NCBI GenBank assembly: GCA_004431415.1
Contig: QPMI01000522.1
Location: forward strand, 186,001 to 250,000
DNA from: Cyanophora paradoxa CCMP329
Taxonomy: Eukaryota; Plantae; Glaucophyta
Length of the DNA stretch: 64,000 nucleotides
Direction of reading: 5' to 3'
The stretch's first letter is position 1. Every line of letters begins with the position of its first letter. The notes below the pieces were generated by a model. It saw only the letters and a program-made list of their open reading frames with translations, was not told the DNA's origin and did not search any database. Below are positions 27,727-50,970 of the stretch, piece after piece. The position numbers were made by a program, and so were the translations under genes.

Positions 27727-27748
27727 AATTTATATTATATGGATAATA

Positions 27749-28819
27749 TTATGAAGAGCTGAGAAGCATACATCCAAAGAACCATCTGATATTATAATAT
27801 GAAGAAGCTCCACCACTGACACTATATGATATTCTGATGGAATCATTAGCTTGAAGGTCAACGATTATTTCCAACCCATTGTTTGCATACACAGATGGAT
27901 AATTATTATTAACTTCAATTCCAGATGAGCTTCCGTTTTTCTGTAAAAATGTTGTTATAATACCTGGTCTTCCAGCCGTATGACAGGATCCACTAAATGT
28001 GACAAGATAGTTTCCTGTAACAGGGGCAGTAAAAAGCCCTGTCGCAGGGTCGAAATGATTCCCTTGGTTCACTATGACTCCTGTTGATGGATATATATTA
28101 ATTGAGGGCATGGTTGCAGTTATTAACCCATTTGGTTGCTGTTTTGTTGCAAAGAAACGAGGGTGACCACTTAATTTCAGATACTTGTAGTCAGGAAGTG
28201 TGAGATGTTGAACAGTTGTATTATCTGTTTGAGTAGTTGTTTGGAGAGAAAAGATTGTGTCCCCATTCCTCTTGTAATTCATGACCATGTCACTCATGTT
28301 ATCAATCTCAGGTGTGTTCAACCTTGTTGTAAGTGTGAGAGTTCCATACTGAATACTCCCTGAAAGCCCACCATTGAAGTCCATAAACCCGCCAAAACTA
28401 CTTGTCCCACTCACAGATAGTTGATTTGCTGTGACAGTTCCTGCTACATTTGCTCCATCTCCAATGTAGGCTCCTCCACTCTTGACTACAAGAGCGGAAG
28501 TATTACTTGTGTTATTGAAAGTAACTATCTGTGCTGTGGTGACTCCACCCACATTATCATATATTGCTGAATCCTGGACTACCTGACCTGCTTGAACTTG
28601 GTTTTTATTCGCGATTATAATGCCTGTGGTTCTAATCTTGCCTCCATTTCGATCACATCGAATTTCTTTGACCCTCAGTATACTGTTCTCTGTGAAAGAG
28701 GTATTACTTGTAGTTTCAGTGCAAATATTCCCAGGTGAAGAGTCGACTACTTCATGAGAGGTGCTGTGTAGTGATTTTGCTGCAAGTTCATAGTTTGGGA
28801 TTTCCAATAGAGAGGTCAT
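27749..28819 (-). CDS. Fibre protein with C-terminal C1q domain (paralogue B)
   Basis: NQGNHFDPATGLFTAPVTGNYLVTF...VDLQANDSI; N-terminal ~130 aa homologous to paralogue A. Confidence 0.85.
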   Translation of the reverse strand: MTSLLEIPNYELAAKSLHSTSHEVVDSSPGNICTETTSNTSFTENSILRVKEIRCDRNGGKIRTTGIIIANKNQVQAGQVVQDSAIYDNVGGVTTAQIVTFNNTSNTSALVVKSGGAYIGDGANVAGTVTANQLSVSGTSSFGGFMDFNGGLSGSIQYGTLTLTTRLNTPEIDNMSDMVMNYKRNGDTIFSLQTTTQTDNTTVQHLTLPDYKYLKLSGHPRFFATKQQPNGLITATMPSINIYPSTGVIVNQGNHFDPATGLFTAPVTGNYLVTFSGSCHTAGRPGIITTFLQKNGSSSGIEVNNNYPSVYANNGLEIIVDLQANDSIRISYSVSGGASSYYNIRWFFGCMLLSSS

Positions 28820-28838
28820 CTTTATATTAATCAAATAG

Positions 28839-30407: not shown

Positions 30408-30444
30408 TATACTCTATTATGGAATACTACAAAAATTAAGGTTG

Positions 30445-34167: not shown

Positions 34168-34210
34168 CCTCTTTATAAACAAAGAAGATATATAAGAAGT
34201 ATATAAGATA

Positions 34211-35704
34211 ATGAAGACCTGCCTCGCTTTGAGTGGAGGGGGGTCGCGCGGAATAATCGAGGCTGCTATACTGGCACAGATTGAAGCCCAAACCGGTAAA
34301 CGAATCCAACAGCTATTCGACTGCTTTGCGGGAACATCCACAGGTGGATTAATCGCGCTCCTATTGAATATCAAGGGAACCGATGGCGCCCCTAAATATA
34401 CTGCCACTGATATTCTCGCGCTCTACAAAGCGAAACTACCGCTGATTTTCGCGAATCCACGAGTGCTTACATCGATTGTACAGCGCCCAAAGTACGAAGC
34501 AACTAACTTAGAAGCGGTGGCTCTCGAACTCTGCGGCTCAGCGACCATGGCGGATCTCTATAAACCAACCATCGTGACTGCATTTGACACGATCTTAATG
34601 TCCCCCGTTTTTATTTCAAGCAACGATGAAGACATTAATGGGATGCTTGTGCGCGATGCTGCAAGGGCTACCTCGGCTGCTCCGACCTATTTCGAGCCGA
34701 AACAAGTCACAGTCGCCGGAAGAACATATTGTTTAATCGATGGTTGCATGAGTGGAAATAATTCGCCCGGGGTTTGCGGCTACACATTTGCCCGCACTTT
34801 ATTCGGAAACTCTTGCGAGGAGGAGCTTATCGTGGTCTCGATTACGGCGGGTCACGTCCAAGACGCCGATAAAGCAACCGCGGGATATTCGTATGACACC
34901 ATGAAAAATTGGGGGATCGTGCAATGGATGCTAAGCGCCACAGGATCGCCAATTCTCAGCATGTTCTTAGAGTCGAGTGATCTAAACGCCCACGTAAAGC
35001 TACTGGAACTTTTACCCAGAAACGATGATCAGAATTACGATCGCTACTATAAGCTGAGCGTTCCTTTACCGAAAGATAAAATGACCCTCGATACTATCAC
35101 AACGACGCACCTGCAATATTTGGAAACGGAAGCGCTCGCCTTTGTTTCCGCACAGCAAACGTATTTTAATGCGATGTATTCAGTGCTGACGATGAATATC
35201 TCAGAGGGCGATGTTCCCATAATTAATCTGTCCGGGTGCACAGATGTAAGCGCACCCCCGGAGTCTAACTGGGTGCCGCTCGATAATAGCGCCTTTATTG
35301 CGGAATTTGGCACAGCTTCTGATGCCCGCTGGTCAAATGCTACGGGGTGGGTGGGATTTACTAACCCGCCGCAAGGTAGTAGGTCGGGAGGCAATTACTT
35401 ACGCATCGATTTCCCGCGTCTGTTTATGCTTTCCTCTATAAAAATGAAGCCGGCTGCGAATGGAAACTACATTAAAACGTTTGAGATCGATTACCAATTA
35501 ACTCCGGGAGTTTCGGCGCTTGTAACATACACAGAAGCCGGCGCGACGAGAGTGTTTACCAATGCAAATCAAATAGCCGGAAGTGCCGATCCTGACGAAC
35601 ATTTCTTAGCAAACCCGAGATCTGTGAGAACCCTCGTAATCTGGGTGCTTACTACGAATGTAGCTTCGGCATGCCGAATTGATTTCGAGGGCTACTACGT
35701 GTGA
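34211..35704 (+). CDS. Patatin-like phospholipase fused to F5/8 type C (discoidin) domain
   Basis: GGGSRG, GTSTG, SAAPTYF, DG(C) motifs; C-terminal YLRIDF...IKTFEIDY...RIDFEG. Confidence 0.88.
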   Translation: MKTCLALSGGGSRGIIEAAILAQIEAQTGKRIQQLFDCFAGTSTGGLIALLLNIKGTDGAPKYTATDILALYKAKLPLIFANPRVLTSIVQRPKYEATNLEAVALELCGSATMADLYKPTIVTAFDTILMSPVFISSNDEDINGMLVRDAARATSAAPTYFEPKQVTVAGRTYCLIDGCMSGNNSPGVCGYTFARTLFGNSCEEELIVVSITAGHVQDADKATAGYSYDTMKNWGIVQWMLSATGSPILSMFLESSDLNAHVKLLELLPRNDDQNYDRYYKLSVPLPKDKMTLDTITTTHLQYLETEALAFVSAQQTYFNAMYSVLTMNISEGDVPIINLSGCTDVSAPPESNWVPLDNSAFIAEFGTASDARWSNATGWVGFTNPPQGSRSGGNYLRIDFPRLFMLSSIKMKPAANGNYIKTFEIDYQLTPGVSALVTYTEAGATRVFTNANQIAGSADPDEHFLANPRSVRTLVIWVLTTNVASACRIDFEGYYV

Positions 35705-35710
35705 CAGCGC

Positions 35711-36556
35711 TTAATCGGTGATCACTTCGAGCTGGAACGAGTATGAGAGACCGTTTATATCCGCAACAGAGCCCCGCCATTTTCGAAGCGAAATTGTGAG
35801 ACGATCTAAATCGAGTTGCGATGTGACATTTACGAAAGGGATGCTTGCGCTCGGTTCGTGGTAAAAGGAATATCTACCAAAGTCCGAGTTCATCTGAATT
35901 CGCAATAGATAGGAGTCGTCGAAATTGTTCTGTCTCCCAGTAACCGCTGCGAATTTGGTAAACGGGCGGAGCTCTTCGATATCAAGGTAAATATATGGAA
36001 TTGCATTAAAGTCGACCATTTTCGGGCATATAATCGCGTAGCGACTGGGGTAATCTCTGAGTGGAACCGGCACTGGTTCTGGTGTGCTGGCGTAAACCAC
36101 TCCGGGTTCTATGCCGAGACAGTCACAGAACTCCTGGTCTGAGGACTCTAATGTAAAAGGGCTATTCGGAGATGAGAACACGAAGCGGTTCGTAGACAGA
36201 GCGAGAGAATAGGAAACCGGGAAGAGACCGAGAGGATTAAAAGAACCGCCTGAAAAACCGAGTAAAGCATCACTGTTTAAAGCTCTCTCTTTCGGATATC
36301 GTTCGTTATCAGCATCGACGTAATAATAATCGTTTACGCTGGGAATCGGTGCTATCATTTTGGATGCGGGGATTACTGTGGGCTCTTCGTTCAAAAGCGT
36401 TATAGTTATTGTCTGATCGGGCGGAACAACATAAGAGCTATTGGGAATCTCAGCTGATAGCACACGAAATCGCCTTACATTATTAAGGCGCGTTTTCAAG
36501 TGCAGCACGCCATTTTCAAGGTCTCTACTGTCGCAATTTATTGTTATTCTTTTCAT
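35711..36556 (-). CDS. Minor capsid protein (penton) 1
   Basis: DSRD...NNVRRFRVLSAEIPNS...YIYLDIEEL...LDRLTISLR..RG..ADING...SFQLEV penton pattern. Confidence 0.8.
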   Translation of the reverse strand: MKRITINCDSRDLENGVLHLKTRLNNVRRFRVLSAEIPNSSYVVPPDQTITITLLNEEPTVIPASKMIAPIPSVNDYYYVDADNERYPKERALNSDALLGFSGGSFNPLGLFPVSYSLALSTNRFVFSSPNSPFTLESSDQEFCDCLGIEPGVVYASTPEPVPVPLRDYPSRYAIICPKMVDFNAIPYIYLDIEELRPFTKFAAVTGRQNNFDDSYLLRIQMNSDFGRYSFYHEPSASIPFVNVTSQLDLDRLTISLRKWRGSVADINGLSYSFQLEVITD

Positions 36557-36572
36557 AATCTATTATAGTAAG

Positions 36573-37499
36573 ATGAAAGAATACCTGAGCTTTTCGAGCG
36601 ATGATCGCGATGAGGAGTTTACTCAGCCAAACCAGTATGTAGTGACATTACCCCGTCGCTATGACAACGTAAAATCTGTGCGCCTGGTGCAGGCAACGGT
36701 TCCCAATGTTCTTTCGACCGTGACAAACGATATAGACGCGACTGGTGCAACCATCGAGCGCATGGAACTCTATTTCTCGGTCACAGCTTCGGATTCCGGA
36801 TTCGTGACCATCACAATCCCCAAAGGATTTTACACCAAAGACGACCTTGCCGCAAAAGTCACAGAAAGACTCGAAGCAGCTCGCCTTTCAGATTTCGGTG
36901 GAAAATATATTAAATGCCGCTATAATACTACTTCAAAGATCTATGAGTTTTTCAGTGATAGTAACTTTTGGTTCAAGTTCTCCAAAGCTTCCCCTGAAAC
37001 ACTCAGAAAATCCAGTAATCGCAAAGCAATCGCTAAGAAACTCGCAATATTCGGTTTCAAAGATATTCAGCTATATGTTTACGAGACATTTACCCCTTTT
37101 GCAAGCGATACATTCCTTGTGTTTAATCCTGGGACGGGAACTGTGACACTCAATCGACGCATTCGCGGCTATACTCGTGGAGATGAGACCCCGGCGGCGA
37201 TGATCTGGCTATATATTGATGAATTTGCGCCGTTTATTCGCTCAGTCAACAAGCACGTCGATGGTTATTTCATGCGCATTCCAATCCCACAGGAACTCGA
37301 ACATGGTGATATCTACCACTTCGACACGTCCACTACGGTGCCTCTCATTCGTGAATTCCGCGAATTAAAATCTTTCGACCGCCTCACGATTAAACTCATC
37401 GACCATGATGGCGCTCTCTTAGATTTCGGGGTTTGGGCGCATTATTTCACTTTTGAAATCGAAACCTACGACGCACCGCCCGAAATGAATTTCTATTGA
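36573..37499 (+). CDS. Minor capsid protein (penton) 2
   Basis: SSDDRD...YVVTLP..YDNVKSVRLV...IPKGFYT...FDRLTIKLIDHDG.LLDF...FTFEI. Confidence 0.82.
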   Translation: MKEYLSFSSDDRDEEFTQPNQYVVTLPRRYDNVKSVRLVQATVPNVLSTVTNDIDATGATIERMELYFSVTASDSGFVTITIPKGFYTKDDLAAKVTERLEAARLSDFGGKYIKCRYNTTSKIYEFFSDSNFWFKFSKASPETLRKSSNRKAIAKKLAIFGFKDIQLYVYETFTPFASDTFLVFNPGTGTVTLNRRIRGYTRGDETPAAMIWLYIDEFAPFIRSVNKHVDGYFMRIPIPQELEHGDIYHFDTSTTVPLIREFRELKSFDRLTIKLIDHDGALLDFGVWAHYFTFEIETYDAPPEMNFY

Positions 37500-37546
37500 G
37501 CCCTGTAAATTATTTTCTGATCCCAAAGATAAGAGAAGAAACGCTC

Positions 37547-38860
37547 ATGGAGACTAACAGCCAATTCCAGCGCCCAACGCTGAAATCTATGCTCACCACC
37601 GATGACTACAAGGATTATTTCCTAAACAAGTCGCTGGTCATTGGAACGTCCTCTGGCACTAAGCCACTTCGAGTTCTGGTCGCCCCCGACACTGAGCCAC
37701 CCAGCGCTCTCGGCAACCGAGTTGTCTTCAAAATCCCCCGCTACCATTTCCTGAATGGTCTCGCGCTGCAACTCGATCTTAACCCGATCACCCTCACTGA
37801 TCTCACGAATGGTGTCGCTGGAACTACTGGCTACCTTCGCGTTATTGGATCGCTAATTAAGCGCATTGAAATCTCTCACGCTTCATTCCGCTATGTTGTC
37901 CCAGAGGATTTCGTCACCCAGTATTTTCTACTGATGACCGAACAGGGCGAACTCGATAAGAAACTTCGCTATGTGGGTGGTCTTGTCGGAACCGCTGGTA
38001 ACACTGTCGGTGGAACCTACGAAATCGATTTACCCTCTCCTTTCGAGAAGGCGATGTTCCCACTTTGCGCTCTGAACTCTGAGATCGTGGTCGAAATCGA
38101 ATTCAAGGCGATTGGTGATGGTATCATTGAGGATGTAAACAATGTTGGCAATATTTCGGTCGTAAACAGTGGTGCTTCCCTTCAAGTGCTGAAACCCCGC
38201 ATTATCTGCAAGGTCGTAAATGCCGATGAGGCGGTTGTATCTGAGACCATTGCCCGTGTTAAATCGACTGGCATCGCGATCCCCTACAACGAAATCGGTT
38301 TCCTCCACACAGATTTCCAGCCGACCGCCTCCGGTTCGCGAGTCAATCTCTCGCAACTCACAGGTGCGGGTCTCATCCACACTCTCGTATTCTCTGTGCG
38401 CCAAAACGCGAAGACGAAGGTGAACAACGGAACTCTCTCGGTTCTGGCTCCTCGTGCACTCCGAACCAACGCTGTGAACTTCTATGTGGAACTCAACAAT
38501 AACCGCCTTTACTCGAATACTTCGCTTCCTCTCATGATTGCCGCGACCGAACTTCAAGATAAATATAATTCGGCGATCTTTACCGAGAGCACAAGCTACC
38601 CCGCTCTCACTGGCATTTACTTCGGTGCTGGAAACGGAAAGGCGTCGCTTCTCAACCAAGAGAACACGGGCTACATCGATGCCACAGGCACATCGGCGTT
38701 CGATCTGGTCTTCGAATTCAATGGTGTCACAGCCGGTGGAGTCGGTAATGAGGAGTGGTATGCGGGTGCCGCTTATCAGAAGATGCAAATTCAGTGCATT
38801 GCCCTCGCTCATAACATAATGATAATTACCGCCGACGGAATCCGAAGAGTATCCGCATGA
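37547..38860 (+). CDS. Major capsid protein (double jelly-roll, PLV type, 437 aa)
   Basis: VVFKIPR..FL..L.L, LIKRIEI, IDLPSPF...FPLCAL..EIVVEIEF, C-terminal ALAHNIMII..DG; lies between penton and ATPase. Confidence 0.85.
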   Translation: METNSQFQRPTLKSMLTTDDYKDYFLNKSLVIGTSSGTKPLRVLVAPDTEPPSALGNRVVFKIPRYHFLNGLALQLDLNPITLTDLTNGVAGTTGYLRVIGSLIKRIEISHASFRYVVPEDFVTQYFLLMTEQGELDKKLRYVGGLVGTAGNTVGGTYEIDLPSPFEKAMFPLCALNSEIVVEIEFKAIGDGIIEDVNNVGNISVVNSGASLQVLKPRIICKVVNADEAVVSETIARVKSTGIAIPYNEIGFLHTDFQPTASGSRVNLSQLTGAGLIHTLVFSVRQNAKTKVNNGTLSVLAPRALRTNAVNFYVELNNNRLYSNTSLPLMIAATELQDKYNSAIFTESTSYPALTGIYFGAGNGKASLLNQENTGYIDATGTSAFDLVFEFNGVTAGGVGNEEWYAGAAYQKMQIQCIALAHNIMIITADGIRRVSA

Positions 38861-38975
38861 TTACCATATTCAGTCTCATTTTTACAACATTTTCATCGTT
38901 TTGGAAATTTCCAGTAAGAGATACCCACAAAAAGCATTTAAAGACAAGCCAACAATCAGTATATTAAGAAACAAG

Positions 38976-39923
38976 ATGACTCCCGCTCTGACTCACGATC
39001 AATTCGTATCTCGGTCTCAGGAAAGATTCCCAGGTAAATTTGCATATGAGAAGGCGAAGTATAAAACATACTGCTTTGACAAGGTCACTTTGATTTGTCT
39101 GACATGTAACACAGAATTCGAATGTCTGCCTTCAAACCATTTGAAAAAAGGTGGATATGGAGGATGTCCCCAATGTTGCAAGGACATGCTCCACAAAGAA
39201 AGAGCCACTCCAAAAGACGTGTTTTTGGAACAGGCTCGATCAGCTCATGGAGACCTATATGATTATGACTTGACGAATTACAGAAACTGTCGTTCTAAGA
39301 TTTCTATTCACTGCAAACAGTGCGGGCACGACTTTGAGAAGACTGTGTGTGAGGTTGTGCGAAGCGAAGGATGCCCGAAATGTAGTTTCCAAGCGAAATG
39401 CAAGAAAAGAAGTAAGCCACTCGATATATTTTTGAACGAAGTCAGTGAAGTTCATGGAGATCTTTATGACTATTCAGAGACAGAATACACAAACAAACGC
39501 ACACCAGTTACCATTAAATGCAAGAAATGTAGCTCAAAGTTTTCATGCCTACCACAGAATCATCTACGGGGGACTGGTTGCCCCCGCTGCAAATTTTCGA
39601 AAGGAGAAATTGCCGTTGAACAAGTCTTGAAGTCTTTGGAGCTTACATTTAAACAACAGCACCGTTTTGCGAACTGCAAAAATAAAAACACGCTACCTTT
39701 CGACTTTTACATTCCTTCATTGAAGATTGCAATCGAGTATGATGGGCGCTTGCATTATGAGCCGGTCGATCACTTTGGGGGTCAGGAAAGATTAGATACG
39801 ATTCGGCTTCACGATGGAATAAAGAACCGCTACTGCGAAGCTAACAATATTAAGCTCCTCCGCATACCATACACTGAAACTGATATTAAAGGTTGCATTG
39901 AGCGCTTCCTCTCATCGCTCTAA
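38976..39923 (+). CDS. Zn-ribbon-repeat endonuclease (DUF723-like repeats + PD-(D/E)xK/DUF559-like nuclease)
   Basis: Three HGD.YDY...VTI.C..C...F....NHL.G.GCP.C-type repeats; SKGE...LPFDFYIP...AIEYDG..H. Confidence 0.85.
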   Translation: MTPALTHDQFVSRSQERFPGKFAYEKAKYKTYCFDKVTLICLTCNTEFECLPSNHLKKGGYGGCPQCCKDMLHKERATPKDVFLEQARSAHGDLYDYDLTNYRNCRSKISIHCKQCGHDFEKTVCEVVRSEGCPKCSFQAKCKKRSKPLDIFLNEVSEVHGDLYDYSETEYTNKRTPVTIKCKKCSSKFSCLPQNHLRGTGCPRCKFSKGEIAVEQVLKSLELTFKQQHRFANCKNKNTLPFDFYIPSLKIAIEYDGRLHYEPVDHFGGQERLDTIRLHDGIKNRYCEANNIKLLRIPYTETDIKGCIERFLSSL

Positions 39924-39968
39924 TTACCACAGTCAGTCTTATTTTTCTATTGTTTTTATAGTGAAAGA

Positions 39969-40835
39969 ATGCAAAAAGGGACAACGCCCATGGATCTCGA
40001 AGAATGGAACCCGAAACAGAGGGTGAAACTTCCCGCACGATTTCTCCTATTGGCGAAAACCAATTGTGGTAAATCGGTATTCTTAAAGTGGCTGATCAAA
40101 GAACTCGAAGACCAGATCTCGTATGTTCTGGTTTTCTGTCCTACGAGTTTTAACGGTTTCTGGGGTCAAATAACAGATGAAGTGCATGATACCTGGAAAC
40201 CGGAATACGTAGAGTCGATCATAGAAGCCCGCAAAAAGGCTATCATTGCGGGTAAGAAACCAAAGAATATTCTTATCGTGCTCGACGATTGTTTGGAGTC
40301 CGGAACTATCGATCTTTCGCGCGATCATTTGCTAAATAAATTGATGGCGCAAGGTCGTCATACGTTTTGTAGCGTCGCTTTAATATCGCAGAAATTAACA
40401 AAGCTGTCAACTATCATTCGCAGTAATGCGGAGTATATCATATTCCTCAGCTGGTCAAACATGCGAGAGTTCGAAGCATATCACGAGGAATTCGGCAACA
40501 TGGATAAGGAGAGTTTCAAACGTATGTTCCAAGAGTTTTGTCATAGCTACCAAGCGATCATTCACGATAATACCGGGTATTCTGTGCGATGGTGGGTCGA
40601 AAAAGCCGATATGATCGATGACCATCCGTTTACTAAATTCCACAAGCGGGCGGCTTTTGAAGAAAAGAAGCGCAAACAACAAGAGGAGCAAGCGACAAAA
40701 CCGCCGCCTGTCAAAGATTCGACAACTGTCTGTCGAACTTTATCCAAATTTGAGCGTGAGCTTGAAGGTATCCCAAAACTTTCGCAAATTTCGCCTAAGA
40801 AAAAGAAAATGTTAATCAAATGTAAGAGAAGATAA
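39969..40835 (+). CDS. A32-like genome packaging ATPase
   Basis: Walker A AKTNCGKS, Walker B ILIVLDD, GRH...ISQ, IRSNAEY. Confidence 0.92.
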   Translation: MQKGTTPMDLEEWNPKQRVKLPARFLLLAKTNCGKSVFLKWLIKELEDQISYVLVFCPTSFNGFWGQITDEVHDTWKPEYVESIIEARKKAIIAGKKPKNILIVLDDCLESGTIDLSRDHLLNKLMAQGRHTFCSVALISQKLTKLSTIIRSNAEYIIFLSWSNMREFEAYHEEFGNMDKESFKRMFQEFCHSYQAIIHDNTGYSVRWWVEKADMIDDHPFTKFHKRAAFEEKKRKQQEEQATKPPPVKDSTTVCRTLSKFERELEGIPKLSQISPKKKKMLIKCKRR

Positions 40836-40837
40836 TC

Positions 40838-41521
40838 ATGGTCTACCGAAAGAAGCCTCAAACCATTCAAACTGTCGCTTCTGGTAATCCTAATCGCGGA
40901 CTTGAAGAGTCTGGGTTAACGTCGGGTGGCGGTCTCGAAATGCCCGAATATCTTATAGACACTTCGCCAGAGGAGGTCGCCAAGCAAGAGGCGATTATTG
41001 CGAGTGCCACCGCGGACAAGGGAAACCAAGATAGCGGTAAACGCCAAATGGACGATTTAGCTACTGTAAAACCACAGATTGGAGGCGGCTCTGTTGATGA
41101 AGCAACCGACAAAGTACTAAAAGCGCAAGTTGTTGCAAGCCAACACAAAACGCAAGACGTCCCGAAAGCCGCCGAAACCGAGCTTAAAAAGCGCGGATCC
41201 TATCAAAAACACACGGTTCCTGTCGACGTTGTCATGAGCTTCGAAGAGAAAGTGCGAGACCTTGAAACGAAAGTCTCTAACTACGAGAAATGGATGCAAG
41301 ATTATAACGAACGCAAGAAATTAAAGGGGCTCGTGAAGAAAGAGATCTCCAAACTCGGATTAAAGCAAAAAGTCGACGTAGAGGAGATTAAAAAGGAGGA
41401 AAAGACAGATGCGCAAGCCGTAACTCGTCAGCAATCGGTCGCCCCGCAATATGCACATATTGTGCCGACCGCACCCGTGAATTATGCCGCAATGCTCGGT
41501 GGTAAACGCCATATCCGCTAA
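40838..41521 (+). CDS. Hypothetical coiled-coil protein
   Basis: 227-aa ORF 2 bp after the ATPase stop; charged helical C-terminal half. Confidence 0.65.
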   Translation: MVYRKKPQTIQTVASGNPNRGLEESGLTSGGGLEMPEYLIDTSPEEVAKQEAIIASATADKGNQDSGKRQMDDLATVKPQIGGGSVDEATDKVLKAQVVASQHKTQDVPKAAETELKKRGSYQKHTVPVDVVMSFEEKVRDLETKVSNYEKWMQDYNERKKLKGLVKKEISKLGLKQKVDVEEIKKEEKTDAQAVTRQQSVAPQYAHIVPTAPVNYAAMLGGKRHIR

Positions 41522-41676
41522 TGACTGTGAATATCCGCAAGGCAAAGCTGAACCCGCCCGTATTTAGAGCGGGTCTTTATGTGGACTCCCTTGCAAAAGG
41601 GACAGGTCGGCTCCATAAACAGCATTATAAGGTCGACCAATTCGTAGGGGAACACACGAGCAAGTAAAGCCCTCAT
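41518..41676 (-). CDS. 52-aa micro-protein with F-box-like motif and CxxC (not in ORF track)
   Basis: MRALLARVFPYELVDLIMLFMEPTCPFCKGVHIKTRSKYGRVQLCLADIHSH*; fills the gap; A-rich leader AATAAAAGGGA-ATG. Confidence 0.55.
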   Translation of the reverse strand: MRALLARVFPYELVDLIMLFMEPTCPFCKGVHIKTRSKYGRVQLCLADIHSH

Positions 41677-41725
41677 TCCCTTTTATTTTCTCCGATATTT
41701 AATACGTTGCTTCCTTGTAGGGTCG

Positions 41726-42160
41726 ATGAATTTCATCACACAATGCATCGAAATGTTTCATTTACATTTCACAAGCACGTGCCACAACTCCTGCTGCGAC
41801 ACAACCGTAGAGGTTAATATTTCTGACGACGAGAATGGAGGTAGGCGCCTTTCTGTATATTCTAACCACAGCGACAATCACAACCACCCAAGATCTCGAT
41901 CGCCCTCGCCTGTGCCCGCGGCTATGAGTTCCAATATCGAAACCGCTCAGATAGAGGACGTGCATGTAGAGCATATTAGAAGGCGCTCATGTCCTGAGTT
42001 TGTAGAAGGTCATTTGCGCGCTGACTCCCCTTATCCGATGTATAGATTGGATCAAATGGCATTAGGCGACGATGAAAATGTAACGAACCCTTATGTTTAT
42101 CCTCAGCAACCTTATGTATATCCTCAGCAACAAGAAAGAACCGTCTGGAACGGTTATTGA
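41726..42160 (+). CDS. Hypothetical protein
   Basis: 144-aa ORF preceded by the TATTTTCTCCG motif; PYVYPQQ repeat. Confidence 0.55.
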   Translation: MNFITQCIEMFHLHFTSTCHNSCCDTTVEVNISDDENGGRRLSVYSNHSDNHNHPRSRSPSPVPAAMSSNIETAQIEDVHVEHIRRRSCPEFVEGHLRADSPYPMYRLDQMALGDDENVTNPYVYPQQPYVYPQQQERTVWNGY

Positions 42161-42284
42161 GCGGTGAATTTCGGTGGCGCTTGTATCGAGCCAAGGGCAA
42201 AAATTGAAGGTTTCGGTAAAAGGTATATAAGGGCAAGGGAAATAATACAGAGTGACAAAAAACTATTTTCTCCGGTTATAGTAA

Positions 42285-42698
42285 ATGGCGAAACCCAAGA
42301 TTTCAAACCAAGAGGCAATGGCGGCACAGCAAGAAAAGCGCAGACCAGGGCGACCGAAGAAGGTGATCACAGAAGAGGAGAAAGCGGAGAGATTAAGACT
42401 AAAACGCGAGAAAGATGCAGAGCGGCAGCGAAACAAGCATCAGAGACAAAAGCAAGAGCGATTAGCCGCCGGAGAGGCTACTATATTCACACCGGAACAG
42501 CTACAAAAGATCGCAATTCGTAAACAGCAGCGATACCAAGACGATGAAGAGTATCGGGAGAAAATCCGAGAGAAGGCACGTGAATACCAACGAAGGAAAA
42601 GAGCGGAACGCAAGCTGAATCCGCCCGCTAAACCTCAGCCGCAAAAGCCCGCTGGGAGACCCCGAAAGCATGTCGTCGAGAACGCGAAAAATTCGTAG
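42285..42698 (+). CDS. Basic DNA-binding protein with two AT-hook-like motifs
   Basis: RRPGRPKK and KPAGRPRK flanking an R/K/E helix; AAAATTGA and TATTTTCTCCGG upstream. Confidence 0.7.
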   Translation: MAKPKISNQEAMAAQQEKRRPGRPKKVITEEEKAERLRLKREKDAERQRNKHQRQKQERLAAGEATIFTPEQLQKIAIRKQQRYQDDEEYREKIREKAREYQRRKRAERKLNPPAKPQPQKPAGRPRKHVVENAKNS

Positions 42699-42867
42699 CG
42701 GAAAGTATCCGTACGATGCAAAAAATGATTAATTTTTTACCTCCATTTTTATTCCCCGTATCGGTCAAAAAAGCACTTAAAGATTTGGCGACAAGGGTAT
42801 GAAAAGGAGAATTTGGTAGATTGCGCCGAAATTATTTTCTCCGGTTATTTTAAAAGAACTAATAGAG

Positions 42868-45800
42868 ATGCCGCGCGCAACCAACAGAATCGCTAACAAT
42901 GTTCGGGATGAAATTATCGGATACATTATGCAGGGATTGAGTCAGGATTTGCTAACCGAAGAACAGGCGCATTGGGCGATGCACAACACAATGAATCGGA
43001 AGCCCAAGCTCCAAACGCTGATCGACATTCGGGATACTCTGAATGGCATCATTAATCCCCGCGTTTTCCGCAGGGCAGAGCGGAAAGAAAAGCGTGCCGC
43101 TCGCACCCAAGTTAATATAGAAAAGCAAAAGCAAAAAGAACAAGAGGCGAAGCGTTTACAGCGCTTCGATCGCAAACGAGAACAGAAACGGGCGAAAGAA
43201 GCGAAACTCGAAGCGAAGCAGCAGAGAGGTAAACTAAAAGCGGTAGAGGATGCGATTAAACGCACTATTCTCGACCCAATCGCCGCATACGATCCGGAAA
43301 CTCTCGCAACAATTACGTTCAAGCTATGGGCGCCCGGATCCGGTGCTCGGTCGTCGGAGGTAATTGTTATTCCCGGAATTCCCGAATCAAATATGCCAGA
43401 CAGAACCTTTGTCACCTACCGCAATCTAAGAGAGACAGTTTCGGTGAGTGTGTTGCGAAGCTTTGCTCTGGCAAAAATCGATAGTGTGTATGGAATTCTC
43501 ACCGCTCAAAATCGTTATTATTCGGAAGAGAGAGATTCAATCTTCGATTTACTCGAAAACTACGATGAATTGAAGATTCGTCTGGGAACTTTCGGACAAG
43601 CATACGAGATGTTCTTCTTTAAGACACCACCAACCGAGGAACAGAAAAAACTACGCAAAGGTTTCGATGATTTTGGCGGCAGTATCGATGATGCCTTTAT
43701 AACTGTTCATGAGGTCGCGATCGATGGGGACGAAGGTGTCGAGGACGATGGAGCCGGCGCTATACCTGGCAATCGCTATGAGTTCCTGGATGAGGAGCTA
43801 ATGGACAGTATGCGATGCACCGCGATTATGAGCAAATTCACAGACTACACATTAAATCCAAACGCGTCTGAGTTCGAAGATATTATTGAGCTTCCCAAAT
43901 CATCGACATCTAACGCTTGCGGCTACGATATGATCATCTCCACATGGGGAGCGTCCATTAAGAAGTGTCAGGAGGCGCCAAAACCGCGATATACTGACTT
44001 AACTATGTCCTACGACGGTCTCTATAAATTCTTTCACGGTCGCGAACGCACACCTGGCGACTCTCTGGCTCTCACGCTCCGCCATATCGAGAAATTCTGT
44101 AAGAGAATTCAGACAGGCTTCCGCGTCTTTGATGTCGACGGAAAGTTAATACACAAATTCGCGGCGGAATCAATTAACAAAAACATCTTTCCCCGCAATA
44201 TTCACTTTATGATTCACAACAAGCACATCTATATATTCAACGATAACATCAAGTCGCTCGAAATGCGCATGGCAAAGATGGAGGTCGAAGAGCTCGATAA
44301 TCATGTTCCTAAGTCGAACTCTTCGTTAGCACTCTATAAAATTCCGACGTGTCTTACTCACGATATCTTCGCGCACACATCCAAGGATTTGTTAAAGATC
44401 ACGCAACTTAAACTATCGCCCGACGAGCGCAGTTTCATCCGCATTCTGTATACTGGGCGCGAAGGTCTGGAAGGTCTTCTATTTACGTTCCTGAAAATGC
44501 GATATGAACCCGCAGTGAAGCTAACACCATCGAAACAGATCGACAGCATCACATTCAAAGCTAATGGCTCGATGTTCTCTATCAAAGATCCACGCACAAC
44601 AGACCACTTTATTGAGCAAGATTTCGAAACAGAGGAGTATTATAATAAGGTCTGTGAAATCGGGAAGGGATTCCGCGAGTCGCTTCTAAATGCGACGAAT
44701 ATCTCACATTACAGCCCGAACATGCGCGAAATTCTCACGCACTACAAGCGATCCGCACTAAGTGGCTTTTTCTATAAGCCGAACCCGAAAGCCACCTACA
44801 CAGCTGTCGATATGGCGAAGTGCTACCCTTCGATACTGAAAGGCATGCAATATCTTCCGAAATACAATGTATTCGATGACTTCGTTCCCTTTAAAGCGGG
44901 AAGCGATATTCTCGAATACGCGATCTACTACGTGCGTGTCGTTGCGTTTGAGAGAGAGCAAGCAACTTTCGCAGACGACGAGGATATTGATTATGATGCC
45001 GCCATGTCTCGCAAGATTGATGGAATCGAAATTATACTGGATCGCGCATTTTCCGTGAGTGGTCGCTGTTATAATTTCATGACAGGCTACACTCTCTCCA
45101 TGCATTGGGCGGACGTAAAGGACAAGATAGAGATTATCGCGGTCGCGGAGCCTTCGCATTTGGTGCCCAATACGTCGATCGCTGAGATGCAAAAAGTGCT
45201 GTCAAGCGACATTCAAACCACAGATAAGAAGCACATTTTAGTGAAAGAGATCGGAATGCTCGGCAAATTCCAAGACTCGCAAACATCCACGAAAATGTTC
45301 TACAACCGTGCCGAGGCTGAGAGGTTCGCCCAAGAATGCGGAGGAACAGTAGAGGTGTTTACTTTCAATCCTAAGAATTCGAAACGTGTCAAAACTCTTA
45401 GCGAATTCGAAGGTCACATCTATTTCGTTAAGATCAGCTCCCACCGCGAGCTCGTTAACGGATTCCTTCCTATCCACTTTCATATTTACGATCGCAACCG
45501 TGCTAATATGTTTGCGCAATACAAGCGCCTGACAGCGCGCGGGCACAAGGTTGCCGGGATCAGAACGGATTGCCTATATATCGAAGGTTCATGGACAAGT
45601 AAGAAAGAGTTCGACCGAAATGCGTTTGAGAACATGGGCAAATTCAGCTATATTCCCGGGAAAAGATGCCCTGAGAATGCACTCCGCCCACCACGGGGTG
45701 TAACTCTCGAATTTCAGGATCCCGAGACACTCATTAACCGGTTCTCGCTGAGGGACGAATTTAATCCGGAGTGCTTTAATTGGGTTGCGGAGCTCCATAA

Positions 45801-47178
45801 TCGTATGCTTGTCCTTGCTGACATGCCCGGAAGTGGAAAGTCGACCCTCGGTATTAATTGCTTTGCCTCTCAAAAGTCAAATTGCTTAGTCATTTGCCCC
45901 TATAACAAACAGTGCGCAGAGCTGAGGGACTCTCTCAAAGTCCGCGGAATCGAGAATATTACCGTTCGCACTTTGTATAATGTTCTCGGGATCCGTGTCT
46001 CAAATGATCAGACCTACGAAGAGGCTATGAGCGAAAAAGACCAGAGGGCGTTTGTCTCCGAGTTCAGCCACATTATGTTCGACGAGATATTCGCGTATTC
46101 TGTAAAAGATCTCGCTAAGATCAAGTCGTTTATCGATCGCTATCCGGATATCAAATATTTGGCTAATGGCGATACCTATCAGAACGAACCGATTAATGAT
46201 GAGCTATCGGTTTCTGATCGCAAGGGCTACTATAAGCGCGCTGTGCAGAGCATGTTCCCTAACGTCCTGAGTCTACGCATTAACAAGCGGCACAAGAAGG
46301 AGACAGACCGTGAATTAATTCGGGCGATTAAAGAGGATCTCTTCGAAAACGGACTCGAAGCCGCACAGATTATCTCGAAATACGGCTTACCGACAATTAA
46401 TGATCTAAGCGCTATTCCCGACGGCTACTTTGGCATCGCTTACAGAAACGAAATGACCTTAGCCTACAACAAACTGATGCACGATAGACGCAAAGTAAAT
46501 ATCCCAACCGTAGAGGTCAATGGCATCAAATTCTACAAGGGTTTGGAAGTCGTTTGCCGCAAGTATCTACGCATTTCGCGGTCTGAGGGCGAGTCTATAA
46601 ACGCATACACGAATTACACCTATCGAATCACCAAAATCACAAAGCAAATGGTCACATTAACGGACGTTTTCGATGGTGTCACGTTTGAGGTTCCGTGCGC
46701 GATGTTAGAACATTTTTCTCTCCCTTATGCAGGAACAGGTCATTCAACGCAAGGTCTCACACTTGATTCGGGCATTGTCATTTGTGAGGCTACGTTCCGC
46801 TATACCACTCGCGAATGGTTCTATACCGCTCTCACTCGTAACCGCGATCTGTCCACTGTGCTGATTTATACACCGATTCACAAGTTCCAAGGAAAGAGCG
46901 ACTACATCGAATATCTGAAAACGAAGATCCGCGGTTATAAATGCCAGGATCAGCGTGCCGGGCGCGATTTCGATGAGGCGGATTATATTACGCCGGAGTG
47001 GATATTAGAGCGCAAGAAGCAACAGAAGGGCGCCTGTGCGATCTGTTCCCTTCCGATTCCGATTGAGCCGCAAGATCCGAATTATAGGCTCGTCGTGGAT
47101 CGCATTAACAACAGGCGCCCACATCTTAAAGACAATTGTCAACTCGCGCATCACGGGTGCAATTGCAGCAAAAAATAA
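42868..47178 (+). CDS. Family-B DNA polymerase + SF1 (Pif1/RecD-like) helicase + C-terminal HNH fusion
   Basis: Pol motifs VDMAKCYPS, K..L...IGML, RTDCL; helicase PGSGKST, FDEIF, GD..Q..P, HSTQGLT, YTALTR; CAIC...VDRINN..PH..DNC....GCN. Confidence 0.85.
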   Translation: MPRATNRIANNVRDEIIGYIMQGLSQDLLTEEQAHWAMHNTMNRKPKLQTLIDIRDTLNGIINPRVFRRAERKEKRAARTQVNIEKQKQKEQEAKRLQRFDRKREQKRAKEAKLEAKQQRGKLKAVEDAIKRTILDPIAAYDPETLATITFKLWAPGSGARSSEVIVIPGIPESNMPDRTFVTYRNLRETVSVSVLRSFALAKIDSVYGILTAQNRYYSEERDSIFDLLENYDELKIRLGTFGQAYEMFFFKTPPTEEQKKLRKGFDDFGGSIDDAFITVHEVAIDGDEGVEDDGAGAIPGNRYEFLDEELMDSMRCTAIMSKFTDYTLNPNASEFEDIIELPKSSTSNACGYDMIISTWGASIKKCQEAPKPRYTDLTMSYDGLYKFFHGRERTPGDSLALTLRHIEKFCKRIQTGFRVFDVDGKLIHKFAAESINKNIFPRNIHFMIHNKHIYIFNDNIKSLEMRMAKMEVEELDNHVPKSNSSLALYKIPTCLTHDIFAHTSKDLLKITQLKLSPDERSFIRILYTGREGLEGLLFTFLKMRYEPAVKLTPSKQIDSITFKANGSMFSIKDPRTTDHFIEQDFETEEYYNKVCEIGKGFRESLLNATNISHYSPNMREILTHYKRSALSGFFYKPNPKATYTAVDMAKCYPSILKGMQYLPKYNVFDDFVPFKAGSDILEYAIYYVRVVAFEREQATFADDEDIDYDAAMSRKIDGIEIILDRAFSVSGRCYNFMTGYTLSMHWADVKDKIEIIAVAEPSHLVPNTSIAEMQKVLSSDIQTTDKKHILVKEIGMLGKFQDSQTSTKMFYNRAEAERFAQECGGTVEVFTFNPKNSKRVKTLSEFEGHIYFVKISSHRELVNGFLPIHFHIYDRNRANMFAQYKRLTARGHKVAGIRTDCLYIEGSWTSKKEFDRNAFENMGKFSYIPGKRCPENALRPPRGVTLEFQDPETLINRFSLRDEFNPECFNWVAELHNRMLVLADMPGSGKSTLGINCFASQKSNCLVICPYNKQCAELRDSLKVRGIENITVRTLYNVLGIRVSNDQTYEEAMSEKDQRAFVSEFSHIMFDEIFAYSVKDLAKIKSFIDRYPDIKYLANGDTYQNEPINDELSVSDRKGYYKRAVQSMFPNVLSLRINKRHKKETDRELIRAIKEDLFENGLEAAQIISKYGLPTINDLSAIPDGYFGIAYRNEMTLAYNKLMHDRRKVNIPTVEVNGIKFYKGLEVVCRKYLRISRSEGESINAYTNYTYRITKITKQMVTLTDVFDGVTFEVPCAMLEHFSLPYAGTGHSTQGLTLDSGIVICEATFRYTTREWFYTALTRNRDLSTVLIYTPIHKFQGKSDYIEYLKTKIRGYKCQDQRAGRDFDEADYITPEWILERKKQQKGACAICSLPIPIEPQDPNYRLVVDRINNRRPHLKDNCQLAHHGCNCSKK

Positions 47179-47196
47179 ACAGGGTTAATTAGAAGA

Positions 47197-48367
47197 ATGT
47201 CACGGATCGTCAGAAGGGTAGCGGGAGAGGAGACAGAGACCACCATACTACCTATCGCGGTTCCTGAAACTGAGCAAGTCCCCAAAAAATCACAAAACGC
47301 CAAGCAAAATCAAATTTATTAGGAGATGTTCCTTTTAGCATTGCTAACCCGTCCTCGAAGATCGTGCGCCGCATGTATGACCCAAAGACAGGTTTTAAGA
47401 ACCCATCGGCATTGTACGAAGAGCTGAGAAAAGAGGACAAGAGCCTCACATTGAAAGAAGTGCAAGATGTCGCAGCGAAACAAGAATTTATGCAGATTAA
47501 CAAGAAGCCCCCAGCACCGACCCAAACAGCTTTTATTCCCATCACAGCCCCGCCGTGGTGCTATCAAGCGGATCTCATATTTTATCTCTCATATGGCAAT
47601 TATAATTCCGGCTACATTGCAGTCCTTACTCTCATTGAGATGACAAGCCGAAAAGCATATGCCAAGAAGTTAAAGAATAAGGAGGGCGCAAGTGTTGCCG
47701 CCGCTTTTGCGGAGATGCTCACAGATCTCCCGGCTCCGATGATTCGATTGGAGACAGATAACGGCTCAGAATTCATCGCGAAGGAGTTTCAGGAGGTCGT
47801 TAAAAGCAATGGAATAGAGCACCGCTTTAAACAGGTCGGAGATCACACTTCGCTGGGAATAATGAATCGCTTTCATTTGACCCTAAAAACGATGATAAAC
47901 AATTACTGTGTCGCATATAATACTGTGCGGTTTATGGACAAGCTGGACGACTTCGTTTTCAATTACAACAACACGATTCACCGAACCATAGGAATGAAAC
48001 CCGGGATGTTAAGCTTTCTGATATGGAGCGGATCCGAGCGGCTATTATTTCAAAGAAGAACACAATCGTAAAGGATATATTCAGCGACTTTAAGCCGGGT
48101 CTCCACGTCCGTGTATTATTGCCAAGATCAAAGTTTGATAAAGGAGCAACACAAAGGTATAGCAGAGAGGTCTACAAAATTGCGGGAAGGAGAGGAAACG
48201 CGATAGAGGTGCAAGATGCAGCGGGGAACGTAATGCCGAAGCTTTTTAAGCCGCACGAATTGCAAATCATTACAGAGGTCGAGGCAGTGGTCGAGCCCGC
48301 AGAAAATGCAATTAAAGCAGCCGAAATGGAAGCCGCTTCTATCCGGCAGGTTCAAAAGAAGGCATAG
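47197..48367 (+). CDS. Retroviral-type (rve) integrase, frameshifted in this assembly
   Basis: YDPKTGF, YQADL, TDNGSEF, NYNNTIHRTIGMKP, C-terminal VRV...FDKG....YS.EVY; -1 breaks near 47285 and 48003, and probably 48357. Confidence 0.9.
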
Positions 48368-48614
48368 ATGTCGCCGCAAGTGTTCCAAAAGGCGCATTAT
48401 TGGAAGATCGCGCAGAAAAGACAAAGAGGGCGCTGAGAGAGCTCGCTAAATTAACGATCGCGGGAACTGAGAAGCTCTCAGAGGTAAACAGTCAGCGGTG
48501 GTATAAATCATTCAAGAATCAGAGCGCAAGCTACACAGCCCCTACTACGCGCATTCTTCGGTCTTCTCGTTCATAACAAACCCGAAATTATTTTCTCCGG
48601 TAAATATAAAAGAG

Positions 48615-48928
48615 ATGGAGGGTGAAAAGTATTATGTTGATATTCCGTTTGATAAAAAAGACGTTGCGAAATCCCTCGGTGGAAAGTGGGATCGTGAGAA
48701 TTCATGCTGGTATGTCATGAAGAAAGATCACCCCCTATGCTCTCAGTTCAAAACTCTAAGCTATGAGCAAGTGTATCAAAGAAACGTGAAGGTTTACCTC
48801 GATATTCCTTATGAATTTAAGGATCAAGCGAAGGCTGAGAAAGCCCGCTGGGATCCGTTATGAAATCCTGGTATGTCATGGGTCTCGATCACCCGCTAAT
48901 GGGCAAGTTTCCGATCAAGGAGCATTAA
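48615..48928 (+). CDS. Tandem DUF5710-like domain protein (one frameshift)
   Basis: YVDIPFDKKDVAKSLGGKWD...WYV repeated as YLDIPYEFKDQAKAEKARWDP / MKSWYV after a -1 break at ~48858. Confidence 0.75.
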
Positions 48929-48953
48929 ATATATCTGTCGTTTTTTTCATTTT

Positions 48954-49344
48954 TTATGAAATTGGGAACCTTTGCTCGACCTGTAAGTCCCACTTTCGCA
49001 CTTTCAGCCTTTCCTGTATGAGATCGTTAATGTCCTGTGCTATACCCATTGTCTTCGCTTCGGCATTTGAGCCGCATGTAAAGATATCGATCGCTAATAG
49101 CCCCTGGTCGCTATAAGAGTGAGCTGTGGCATGCGACTCATCTAATAGAAAGCCAATCGCGAAACCGGGAGGGGAATTAGAGCCATCGAAAATGCATGTG
49201 TGCTGGTGCACGATGCGCATATTGCGATCTGTGATATATTGCGATAGGTTCGCTGTGATCCACTCGGCGCATGCCTCCGGGACTCAGTAAACGGCTCGGT
49301 TATATAGTCGAGCATAACGTGGTAGCCGCGGTATCGGAATCCAT
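48954..49344 (-). CDS. S-adenosylmethionine decarboxylase-like pyruvoyl enzyme (SpeD class 1B-like), frameshifted
   Basis: LLDESHATAHSY...AIDIFTCG with E-SH self-cleavage site; N-terminal GYHVMLD in an adjacent frame; two -1 breaks. Confidence 0.8.
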
Positions 49345-49597
49345 TATTAATTATTTAACAAATATTTTAATGACCATATGATATCTACATGTGCGTGCTG
49401 GTCTCATCAAGACGGTCACGGCGCTATTTTCATTTTTGAATGGCGATGAGTTGGTGAAGAGATACAGGGGTTTGACGGTTTGTATGGCGGTTTTCGGCTT
49501 TTTGTTTTTTTGTTTTTTTGATTTTGTTTGTTTTTAGTTTTTGTTCGAACTCTGGGTTTTTTTGCATGTGACACCTGTTAACAGCTGTCAGTTTTTA

Positions 49598-49683
49598 GGT
49601 ATCCCCCCTTTCTAGACCTTTCTAGTAAACCGGTAGCCCCCCTTTCTAGACCTTTCTAGTAAATCGGTATTCCCCCTTTCTAG
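49598..49683. repeat. 34-bp tandem repeat x2.5
   Basis: Unit GGTATCCCCCCTTTCTAGACCTTTCTAGTAAACC. Confidence 0.9.
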
Positions 49684-49950
49684 TGGCTTGTGATTGGTCG
49701 AATACCACAACAAAAACATTAATTACTACTTTGTGGCATGCTATATGTTTTCGGAATCGCCCCGATATGATGACCCCGAATATGTCGGTGACGCCGGTAT
49801 ATATATGTATATGTCGCCATATGAGAAAAAAAACAAAAAAACAAAAAAATCAAAGTTGTGCGGGATCACACACACGGAGGTTCGGACATATATACGAAAT
49901 ATATACATGACTTAATCGTTATAGTTTTTCATGGAACTCGCATGTAGTTT

Positions 49951-50511
49951 GCATGTATCTTGCATAGTGGGCGGGGCGCGAGTGGTTCCAGTGCATTAAA
50001 TGGAACATTTCGATTGAAGTCGCGAGTGTGTGCAGGTGGGCATTTTCGGCATGCTTGCTCATGCACAAACTTGCTTTCGTTATTTTTCATTGCTTGCGAT
50101 AAATCGATTAATCGTGTTCTATCGTCGTACTTTGTCGATTATCGTACTCTATCGGTGGGGTTCACCTTGATTTCGTATTTGATCCATCCGGATTAAGGCT
50201 ATCGGTGGGGGTCACCTTGATTTTTCAATTTGGGTAACTGTAAACAGTCTGGAAACGATCGGGAACATTTCGTAAAAATAAGGGTCTTACTGTCCTTACT
50301 GAGAAATCGAGAGAGGGTTTTAGGGCTTACTGAGAATGGTAAGGAATTAGAAAAATGAAGAATGAAAGGGTTTCGTGATTGGTTTCAGTAAGGAGAGGTT
50401 AGATGTTTGAAAAATGTAGTGTGGCTCAGTGCGAATTTGTGATTTTGTGACTGAGATTCGTGATGCTGTAAATGTGCTTATTGAAAATGGTCGCGCGCAA
50501 TTGGTGGGGGT
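49951..50511 (-). repeat. Right terminal inverted repeat (outer block plus inner modules)
   Basis: Reverse complement of 25495-25817 and of modules within 26237-26378. Confidence 0.9.
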
Positions 50512-50970
50512 GACCTGCATGCGAGCCACGCCATGGAGAACCCAGACTTTGCATTTGACTACTGATGTCGATCTGAACATGACAAAAATTTGAAAATGGC
50601 CATGGCTGCTGCACATGTCGTCTGTCCCCTCATCCGCATGGCCTCAAGTGCAAAAGTCACTCCGACGTTCTTCCCAGGCGCTAGCTATATATATAGCTAT
50701 AGGGTTTCAGGGCTTCCAAACAAGTCGGGGACCCGGGGGCTATATATGGTTTCCGAGAAGGGGCTAGGGGCTAGGGTTATAGGGCTATGTACGGTTTCCA
50801 AGAAGTTCAAAAAAGGCGTGGGGCGAGGGGGCCGGGCGATCGCGAGCAAGGGGAGGGCGGGGGCCGGGGGCCCGGGGGAGGGGGGGGAGGGGGCGAAGGG
50901 GAGGGGGAAGGGGTGGAAGGGGGGATCCGGAGGGACTCGGGGAGGGGGCTGCAATATTAAATTAATTTGC

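Follow-up and report, generated by a model that had tools for sequence, protein, structure and literature searches.

The 64,000-nucleotide stretch analyzed here (the window) comes from the glaucophyte Cyanophora paradoxa CCMP329 (assembly GCA_004431415.1, contig QPMI01000522.1, positions 186,001 to 250,000 of the forward strand) and carries an integrated polinton-like element. Within this element lies a single open reading frame (ORF) for a large replicase, whose domains and neighbors are listed in Table 1. The product combines a family B DNA polymerase (PolB) palm with a superfamily 1 (SF1) helicase and a terminal HNH domain. It is close to certain that this replicase belongs to the pPolB-S1H ("Tlr1-like helicase") family, in which a protein-primed PolB (pPolB) is fused to such a helicase.

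Table 1. Features of the replicase ORF and of the element that carries it (positions in the window; aa, amino acids; TIR, terminal inverted repeat)
Feature	Position	Strand	Details and basis
pPolB-S1H replicase ORF	42868..47178	+	1436 aa, single uninterrupted frame
Basic N-terminal stretch	42868..43287	+	aa 1-140, 34 K+R, poorly conserved
Alpha/beta domain in terminal-protein position	43303..43722	+	aa about 146-285, AlphaFold model
vOTU-like cysteine protease	43795..44253	+	aa about 310-462; Cys351 (43918), His453 (44224)
Remnant of 3'-5' exonuclease fold	44353..44742	+	aa about 496-625, structural alignment; catalytic carboxylates gone
Protein-primed PolB palm and fingers	44743..45687	+	aa 626-940, model and profile alignment
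TPR1-position insert	about 44845-45171	+	model, between motifs A and B
TPR2-position insert	about 45268-45453	+	model, between motifs B and C
SF1B (RecD2/Pif1/Dda-like) helicase	45790..46872	+	aa about 975-1335, profile searches
Zn-binding HNH (His-Me finger), PacI-like pattern	46900..47175	+	C1390, C1393, D1411, R1412, H1419, N1423, H1428, C1431, N1432
Endogenous polinton-like element	25479..50526	.	25,048 bp, about 44% GC versus 64-68% GC in host flanks
Left target-site duplication, 6 bp	25473..25478	+	CACGCC, read from end sequences
Right target-site duplication, 6 bp	50527..50532	+	CACGCC, read from end sequences
Left TIR	25479..25824	+	core 25594-25824 95% complementary to right arm
Right TIR	50191..50526	-	alignment of ends
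Retrovirus-like (rve) integrase	47364..48367	+	Pfam rve E 1e-13; split over two frames near 48000; adjoins replicase
A32-like packaging ATPase	39969..40835	+	Pfam Pox_A32 E 1.6e-10
Putative major capsid protein	37496..38860	+	454 aa; size and position only
Putative minor capsid protein, weak lead	36441..37499	+	Pfam DUF5901 E 0.0018, below cut-off
Stand-alone homing-type endonuclease with Zn fingers	38901..39923	+	PHROG 559 E 2.5e-71, Pfam DUF4379; between putative capsid and ATPase genes

A first-pass annotation, made from the letters of the window and a list of its ORFs, had placed PolB motifs A and C and a noncanonical motif B in one ORF, and these motifs are real. Motif A (DMAKCYP) occupies positions 44809-44829, with the D648 codon at 44809. 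Motif B, at 45229-45255, reads K788-x3-V792-x3-G796 and has a Val codon at 45241 in place of Asn, and motif C (RTDC, R899-T-D901) begins at 45562. Residue conservation was counted in 121 relatives of 1150-1700 aa out of 152, with the 31 shorter ones left out. D648, G796, and D901 are each invariant (121 of 121) and K788 is found in 120, and because of these invariant residues the motifs cannot be attributed to chance. The steric-gate residue Y653 is likewise kept in 118 relatives.

An AlphaFold model of aa 130-975, built with 58 sequences, reached a pLDDT of 78 and a pTM of 0.79. When it was compared with the PDB by Foldseek, all nine matches at E<=0.001 were to phi29 DNA polymerase. VIA-align placed the model on phi29 polymerase with a Z of 15.7 (root-mean-square deviation 4.5, 366 residues aligned, 9% identity); RNA-primed family B polymerases gave Z<=8.2, and the top viral structural matches were pPolBs of bidnavirus-type, mavirus, phi29-like, and tectivirus origin. 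The family profile also aligned with a profile of nine phage pPolB sequences (E 1.9e-4), and motifs A, B, and C stood in register. Compared with column shuffles, the pPolB profile alignment scored better than all ten (E 0.003 vs 0.46-0.89), and HHalign against the single phi29 polymerase sequence was uninformative. As modeled, the palm is of the protein-primed type. The phi29 match stops at phi29 residue 498-499 and includes neither a thumb nor a KxY motif; the helicase begins 90 residues after motif C.

The N-terminus of about 600 aa had been suggested to act as a terminal protein (TP). Instead, it resolves into a basic helical stretch, an alpha/beta domain, a vOTU protease, and an exonuclease remnant. 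The alpha/beta domain is modeled with pLDDT values of 59-76 in its ordered parts and below 50 for aa 200-254. The vOTU protease upstream of the palm was overlooked in the first-pass annotation; its assignment rests jointly on C351 and H453, each kept in 121 of 121 relatives, and on a weak fold match of model residues about 170-345 to OTU deubiquitinases (Z 4.1-5.0).

No 3'-5' exonuclease motifs had been seen in the same region, and this observation holds for the catalytic residues but not for the fold, part of which is covered by the structural match to phi29 polymerase. The alignments start at model residue 365-369 (aa 494-498), at the ExoI strand, and this start pairs with residue 3-6 of phi29 polymerase, 135-136 of an archaeal PolB, and 283 of Pol epsilon. 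We take the boundary of the phi29 exonuclease domain to lie near residue 190; the 366 residues aligned between phi29 residues 3 and 498 therefore include part of that domain. An ungapped pairing of the strand places the ExoI Asp and Glu at H503 and S505, given the usual numbering of these residues in the phi29 and archaeal enzymes. The corresponding Pol epsilon residues are given as D290 and E292 in the available text of PMC10639073. A profile alignment pairs the same strand with the third Exo strand instead. Under either pairing, the query has no carboxylate at the ExoI-III positions, nor do the relatives conserve one at these sites.

By sequence alone, the exonuclease remnant scored 10.1 compared with 7.4-11.3 for shuffles, which is not significant. 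Because this signal is no better than that of shuffles, the remnant rests on the structural model. An ESM Atlas search with aa 325-640 returned pPolB clusters with scores all below 0.9, which are to be taken as leads only. Proofreading is thus lost, whereas on the model some of the exonuclease fold is still in place.

The claim of a full SF1 motif set was borne out. Motifs I, Ia, Ib, II, III, IV, V, and VI span positions 45820-46839, and the family profile matches, at E 2e-14 to 3e-12, RecD2, Pif1-like helicases, and Dda. A PHROG of Dda-like helicases is also matched (E 1.6e-13). Helicases of the SF1B type are described as having 5'-to-3' polarity (available text of PMC5499653).

The terminal Zn/HNH-like domain is likewise real: aa 1323-1436 match the PHROG of endonuclease VII at E 5e-9, and a PHROG of HNH proteins is matched at E 0.004. 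The canonical general-base His that follows the metal-binding Asp is replaced by Arg in 109 of the 121 relatives, and at the loop position of H1419, 109 relatives have His and 4 have Tyr. A profile of the domain aligns ungapped to PacI residues 86-116 (31 residues), although weakly (E 0.5; E 0.021 for the whole-protein profile). This alignment pairs D1411 with D92, R1412 with R93, N1432 with N113, and H1419 with Y100, which we take to be the general-base tyrosine of PacI. As described in the available parts of three reviews (PMC5714182, PMC3384342, PMC4081073), PacI lacks the metal-strand His and uses a loop tyrosine as its general base.

The full PacI-like residue set occurs in 106 of the 121 relatives, a count biased upward by a search query that included the HNH domain and so favored relatives bearing it. 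Six of the 15 relatives lacking the full set have no aligned HNH residues at all, some perhaps because they are cut at contig ends. With the HNH domain alone, phmmer found no match in the PDB, a word search found no stand-alone relative, and an ESM Atlas search (aa 1340-1436) gave unnamed Nucleocytoviricota clusters and HNH, all below 0.9 and thus leads only. Because position 1419 is mostly His, the residue set is intact in so many relatives, and the domain is the best conserved of the protein, its sequence suggests that the HNH is probably an active nuclease.

A search with aa 561-1436 among 1.84 billion representatives yielded 1311 matches at E<=0.001, of which 370 reached E<=1e-30. One of the matches, DAC81521.1 ("PolB-S1H [Capsaspora MELD virus 1]"), is identical at 332 of 1181 positions (28%, E 3e-111) from the vOTU through the HNH. 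The layout is common to the 121 full-length proteins among the 152, and its spacing is steady: 102 residues separate the vOTU Cys and His in the query versus a median of 99 in the relatives, 195 versus 194 lie between the vOTU His and motif A, and 90 versus 91 between motif C and Walker A. Median identity to the relatives is 35% for the HNH, 32% for the helicase, 27% for the palm, and 12% for N-terminal aa 1-140. Pfam recognized no PolB, OTU, or HNH family in the query nor in 11 relatives, and a phmmer search of the PDB with the single protein gave RecD2 only (E 0.22). Related loci were not found in the viral or metagenome contigs searched, and the phage records held no match to the replicase.

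Most of the traits by which pPolB-S1H proteins are recognized are present, and the alpha/beta domain is a candidate for the one in the TP position. An SF1B helicase occupies the C-terminal part of a protein in the class of 1000-1400+ aa, and upstream of it lies a family B palm with motifs A-C in which the first motif-C Asp is lost. Inserts stand in both the TPR1 and TPR2 positions of the model, assigned as residue ranges rather than as residue pairs. A canonical Polinton pPolB (TP-vOTU-Exo-Palm) was ruled out, since ExoI-III are not intact and a helicase is fused. Pipolins, which encode piPolB, occur in a context of tRNA insertion and a tyrosine recombinase; the replicase here sits in an element with TIRs and an rve integrase.

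The fusion architecture was already published in 2016 (Krupovic, Yutin, and Koonin; available text of PMC5499653) and 2024 (Krupovic et al.; available text of PMC11161782) and is common. The polymerase region does model as a PolB palm, but what the first-pass annotation had named as a refutation of its reading has largely come true: the region aligns with protein-primed pPolBs, has inserts in the TPR1 and TPR2 positions, and forms part of a known fusion.

The motif-B Asn is present in 110 of the 121 relatives, and the others carry Val (6), Cys (2), Leu (2), or Thr (1). Eight of these 11 form one clade (SH-aLRT 100). In one palm tree the query falls inside this clade (0.95), but it lies near rather than inside once motif columns are removed or other domains are used (34 chosen rows in the last tree). 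A shared origin of the query's Asn loss with the eight-member clade was not established, as the placement is lost without the motif columns, and the Asn may therefore have been lost more than once.

All four of the other sequencing runs examined across the palm, whose contigs drop rare variants, lacked any variant at the Val codon (45241-45243) or at motifs A and C among the 21 variable places listed. Polymorphisms among copies in other runs are mostly silent. They affect 12 synonymous versus 7 non-synonymous codons in the palm stretch, which is listed in full, and 23 versus 9 over the ORF (34 in-ORF sites among the 40 best-supported of 167 places), against an expected synonymous share of about 22%. 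By these sequence comparisons the ORF shows signs of purifying selection. A close parallel to the Val is available in Pol epsilon, whose N828 we take to be the motif-B Asn. Yeast Pol epsilon N828V is reported to have activity comparable to wild type, increased uptake of nucleoside triphosphates (NTPs), and a mutation rate raised 3.8-fold (available text of PMC10639073). By analogy, we infer that the motif-B Val would make for an active, sloppier, ribonucleotide-tolerant polymerase rather than a dead one.

Several known systems bear comparison. In the available text of PMC5499653, SF1 helicases of polinton-like viruses (PLVs), Tlr1, and transpovirons are joined to a polymerase domain of the protein-primed type that contains TPR1 and TPR2. 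These fusions are described there as having no exonuclease and no motif 4, and a C-terminal HNH is noted in PLVs. The 2024 paper adds a domain in the TP position and an active vOTU, predicts polymerase activity, renames the family pPolB-S1H, and holds that the vOTU frees the TP (PMC11161782, available text). Where PLVs have HNH, Tlr1 has GIY-YIG according to the passages available from both papers. The accessible parts of two further reports (PMC13215967; preprint 10.64898/2026.06.19.733378) describe fusions of this type as common, and that of 10.64898/2026.10.13.758929 holds nothing further on SF1 fusions.

The replicase in the window resembles these proteins in size (1436 aa here, 1000-1400 aa there), in its setting in a linear TIR-bounded element, and in the order of its N-terminal domains, vOTU, palm with TPR1/TPR2, SF1B helicase, and C-terminal HNH. 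It also shares the loss of the first motif-C Asp and of motif 4 and the lack of a working exonuclease, the Tlr1 and transpoviron proteins being compared here by their published description. Three differences stand out. The papers, in their available text, call motifs A and B conserved, whereas motif B has Val here; their main texts report an exonuclease-fold remnant only for mavirus; and the Asp-Arg, PacI-like HNH is not described in the published main-text passages. However, the supplements of both Krupovic papers may already cover the exonuclease remnant, the HNH type, and motif-B variants.

The Capsaspora MELD virus 1 PolB-S1H (DAC81521.1; Starrett et al. 2021, available text of PMC8502044) aligns from the vOTU to the last HNH residue, but it keeps the motif-B Asn, has a CxxC second Zn pair where the query has HxxC, and has an N-terminal 300 aa that cannot be aligned. 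The polymerase of Bacillus phage phi29, the best structural match from the ExoI strand to residue 498, differs in having an active exonuclease, a thumb, the KxY motif, and a separate terminal protein, with no protease, helicase, or nuclease attached. A helicase-pPolB fusion of about 1500 aa is also encoded by an endogenous PLV of about 25 kb in Oxyrrhis marina. In the available text of Haro et al. 2025 (PMC12721341), this protein has an N-terminal helicase and a complete exonuclease, and a vOTU or TP was not found; the Oxyrrhis marina fusion arose independently. PacI (His-Me finger group 20) shares with the HNH domain the Asp-Arg pair at the metal strand, the Asn in the helix, and a CxxC, but it is a stand-alone homodimer with Tyr where the query has His, and the E-values of the match are weak.

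The surrounding element has several of the features expected of a PLV or group 2 Maverick-Polinton, namely a TIR-bounded length within 15-40 kb, a target duplication, an integrase, and an A32 ATPase. Beyond the left TIR, further matching patches extend out to about 26378. In the integrase region (47279-48854), contigs of three other runs show five length differences from the window, one of them at the break, and most or all of their depth supports these differences. The break therefore looks specific to the present copy or its assembly. The candidate capsid protein has no Pfam, NCBIfam, PHROG, or PDB match; its one relative found is 61% identical, and the protein may represent a group of capsids that has been sampled poorly.

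Other parts of the element encode a variety of proteins. An ORF with Zn fingers (25800-26204) adjoins the left TIR and resembles the N-termini of endonuclease VII. Four reverse-strand genes at 26707-34407 combine tail-like repeats with domains of the C1q and H-type lectin kinds, with a 36-bp tandem repeat at 29667-29752 and a 277-nt repeat (75%) shared by two C1q genes; they likely encode fiber or receptor-binding proteins. A patatin-like phospholipase gene (34211-35704) is also present (Pfam E 8e-22), with a C-terminal domain that has no assignment. A noncoding 34-bp tandem repeat (49598-49683; 2.5 copies, 92%) precedes the right TIR. In the host flanks, inverted-repeat pieces at 6151-8275 (about 2.1 kb), 4478-4961, and 11113-11375 (0.2-0.3 kb each) are probably DNA transposons or miniature inverted-repeat transposable elements.

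Seventeen of the 24 listed runs of one organism contain at least half of the gene's words, in several diverged copies. In runs X2, X4, X9, and X14, low-depth contigs over 44790-45650 match only short stretches, around motif B and ahead of motif C, beyond which they no longer resemble the window; these are a second, more diverged relative of the replicase in the same organism. Five 151-base pieces come from one run guessed to be RNA and show nothing on expression.

How would such a protein copy its element? Most likely, the fusion copies the linear genome between its TIRs by strand displacement that is primed by a protein and assisted by the helicase, although each of the activities involved is something we infer. 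Protein priming is favored because of the TPR-position inserts, the invariant vOTU dyad, and the TIRs. The N-terminal alpha/beta domain would accept the first nucleotide at each TIR, and the vOTU would then release this domain by cleavage, leaving it attached to the new 5' end. Extension by the palm would proceed without proofreading and, given the motif-B Val, the polymerase would remain active yet be more tolerant of ribonucleotides and errors. The SF1B helicase would travel 5' to 3' on the displaced strand and could offset the absent thumb and exonuclease, in a geometry that is putative. The HNH may be a working accessory nuclease that acts on ends or on branched intermediates, or else a homing module that has been kept, and would not be the maker of primers.

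Several points weigh against this reading. The TP domain is only a candidate, with low model confidence, no priming residue assigned, and no sequence match to three phage TPs (PRD1, GIL16, and phi29). The OTU matches, at Z 4-5 in an 846-residue model, fall in a range common by chance. The palm lacks three features at once, namely the first Asp of motif C, the Asn of motif B, and the KxY motif. As the domain with the highest conservation, the HNH may be more important than "accessory" conveys. Finally, biochemical work on any pPolB-S1H protein was not found in our literature search.

The first-pass annotation had drawn a different picture, in which a nick-unwind-synthesize route replaces canonical protein-primed replication. 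Its list of domains (PolB core, SF1 helicase, and HNH, with no working exonuclease) and its strand displacement are supported. Its separation from protein priming is unsupported, as the intact vOTU dyad and the linear TIR element point to TP priming. In such a scheme the HNH would nick at or near a TIR, the helicase would open the duplex, and the palm would extend the 3'-OH, so that a TP would be unneeded or nicking would be a second start route, for instance from the integrated copy, which has no protein on its ends. The prevalence and conservation of the PacI-like HNH set, and the position of His1419 at the place of the PacI tyrosine thought to be the general base, are in keeping with this idea. 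A precedent is ZRANB3, a cellular helicase-plus-HNH protein that makes a 3'-OH for a polymerase (available text of PMC5714182). Yet the TPR-position inserts, vOTU dyad, and TIRs fit protein priming, no result here shows the HNH nicking to prime synthesis, and the PacI match is weak. Moreover, 15 relatives do without the full HNH set even in a collection biased toward it, and the C-terminal nuclease appears exchangeable, as the published contrast of GIY-YIG in Tlr1 with HNH in PLVs illustrates. We therefore regard nick priming as quite unlikely.

Very unlikely, too, is that the palm is a dead scaffold, with the protein serving instead as a helicase that binds origins and brings in a polymerase of the host or of a giant virus. 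The same combined loss of palm motifs led the 2016 paper to judge such palms inactive (PMC5499653, available text), and here the RTD motif C and Asn-less motif B are accompanied by the lack of KxY, thumb, and proofreading residues. Against inactivity stand the invariant metal-binding D648 and D901, the near-invariant K788 and Y653, the mostly silent palm polymorphisms, and the Pol epsilon activity that survives Asn-to-Val replacement (PMC10639073). Active polymerases without the same motif-C Asp also exist, according to the available text of PMC11161782. The idea that the copy is a decaying provirus, its Val arising by mutation after insertion or by assembly error, draws on the split integrase next door and on the five length differences from other runs downstream of the ORF. 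It is largely refuted and exceedingly improbable, since the 4.3-kb frame is open, none of the four runs has a listed variant in the Val codon, motif A, or motif C, and 11 of the 121 relatives also lack the Asn, eight of them in one clade.

A more speculative and rather unlikely proposal keeps protein priming and adds to it. The PacI-like HNH, intact across relatives that are 25-35% identical, would cut the element's ends and thereby allow copying from the integrated provirus, and Asn-less lineages would be ribonucleotide-tolerant and free of proofreading. If true, there would be two start routes, one from a nick in the chromosome and one from the terminal protein on free genomes.

As a discovery this replicase matters little, given that its architecture is published and common (1311 representatives). 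Its value is that of a test case for a family whose polymerase activity has been argued both ways, as inactive in 2016 (PMC5499653) and as active in 2024 (PMC11161782), in the available text of each. Because the frame of the present copy is open and shows signs of purifying selection, its ends are defined, and its motif B naturally mirrors Pol epsilon N828V, it could settle both the question of polymerase activity and the role of the HNH domain.

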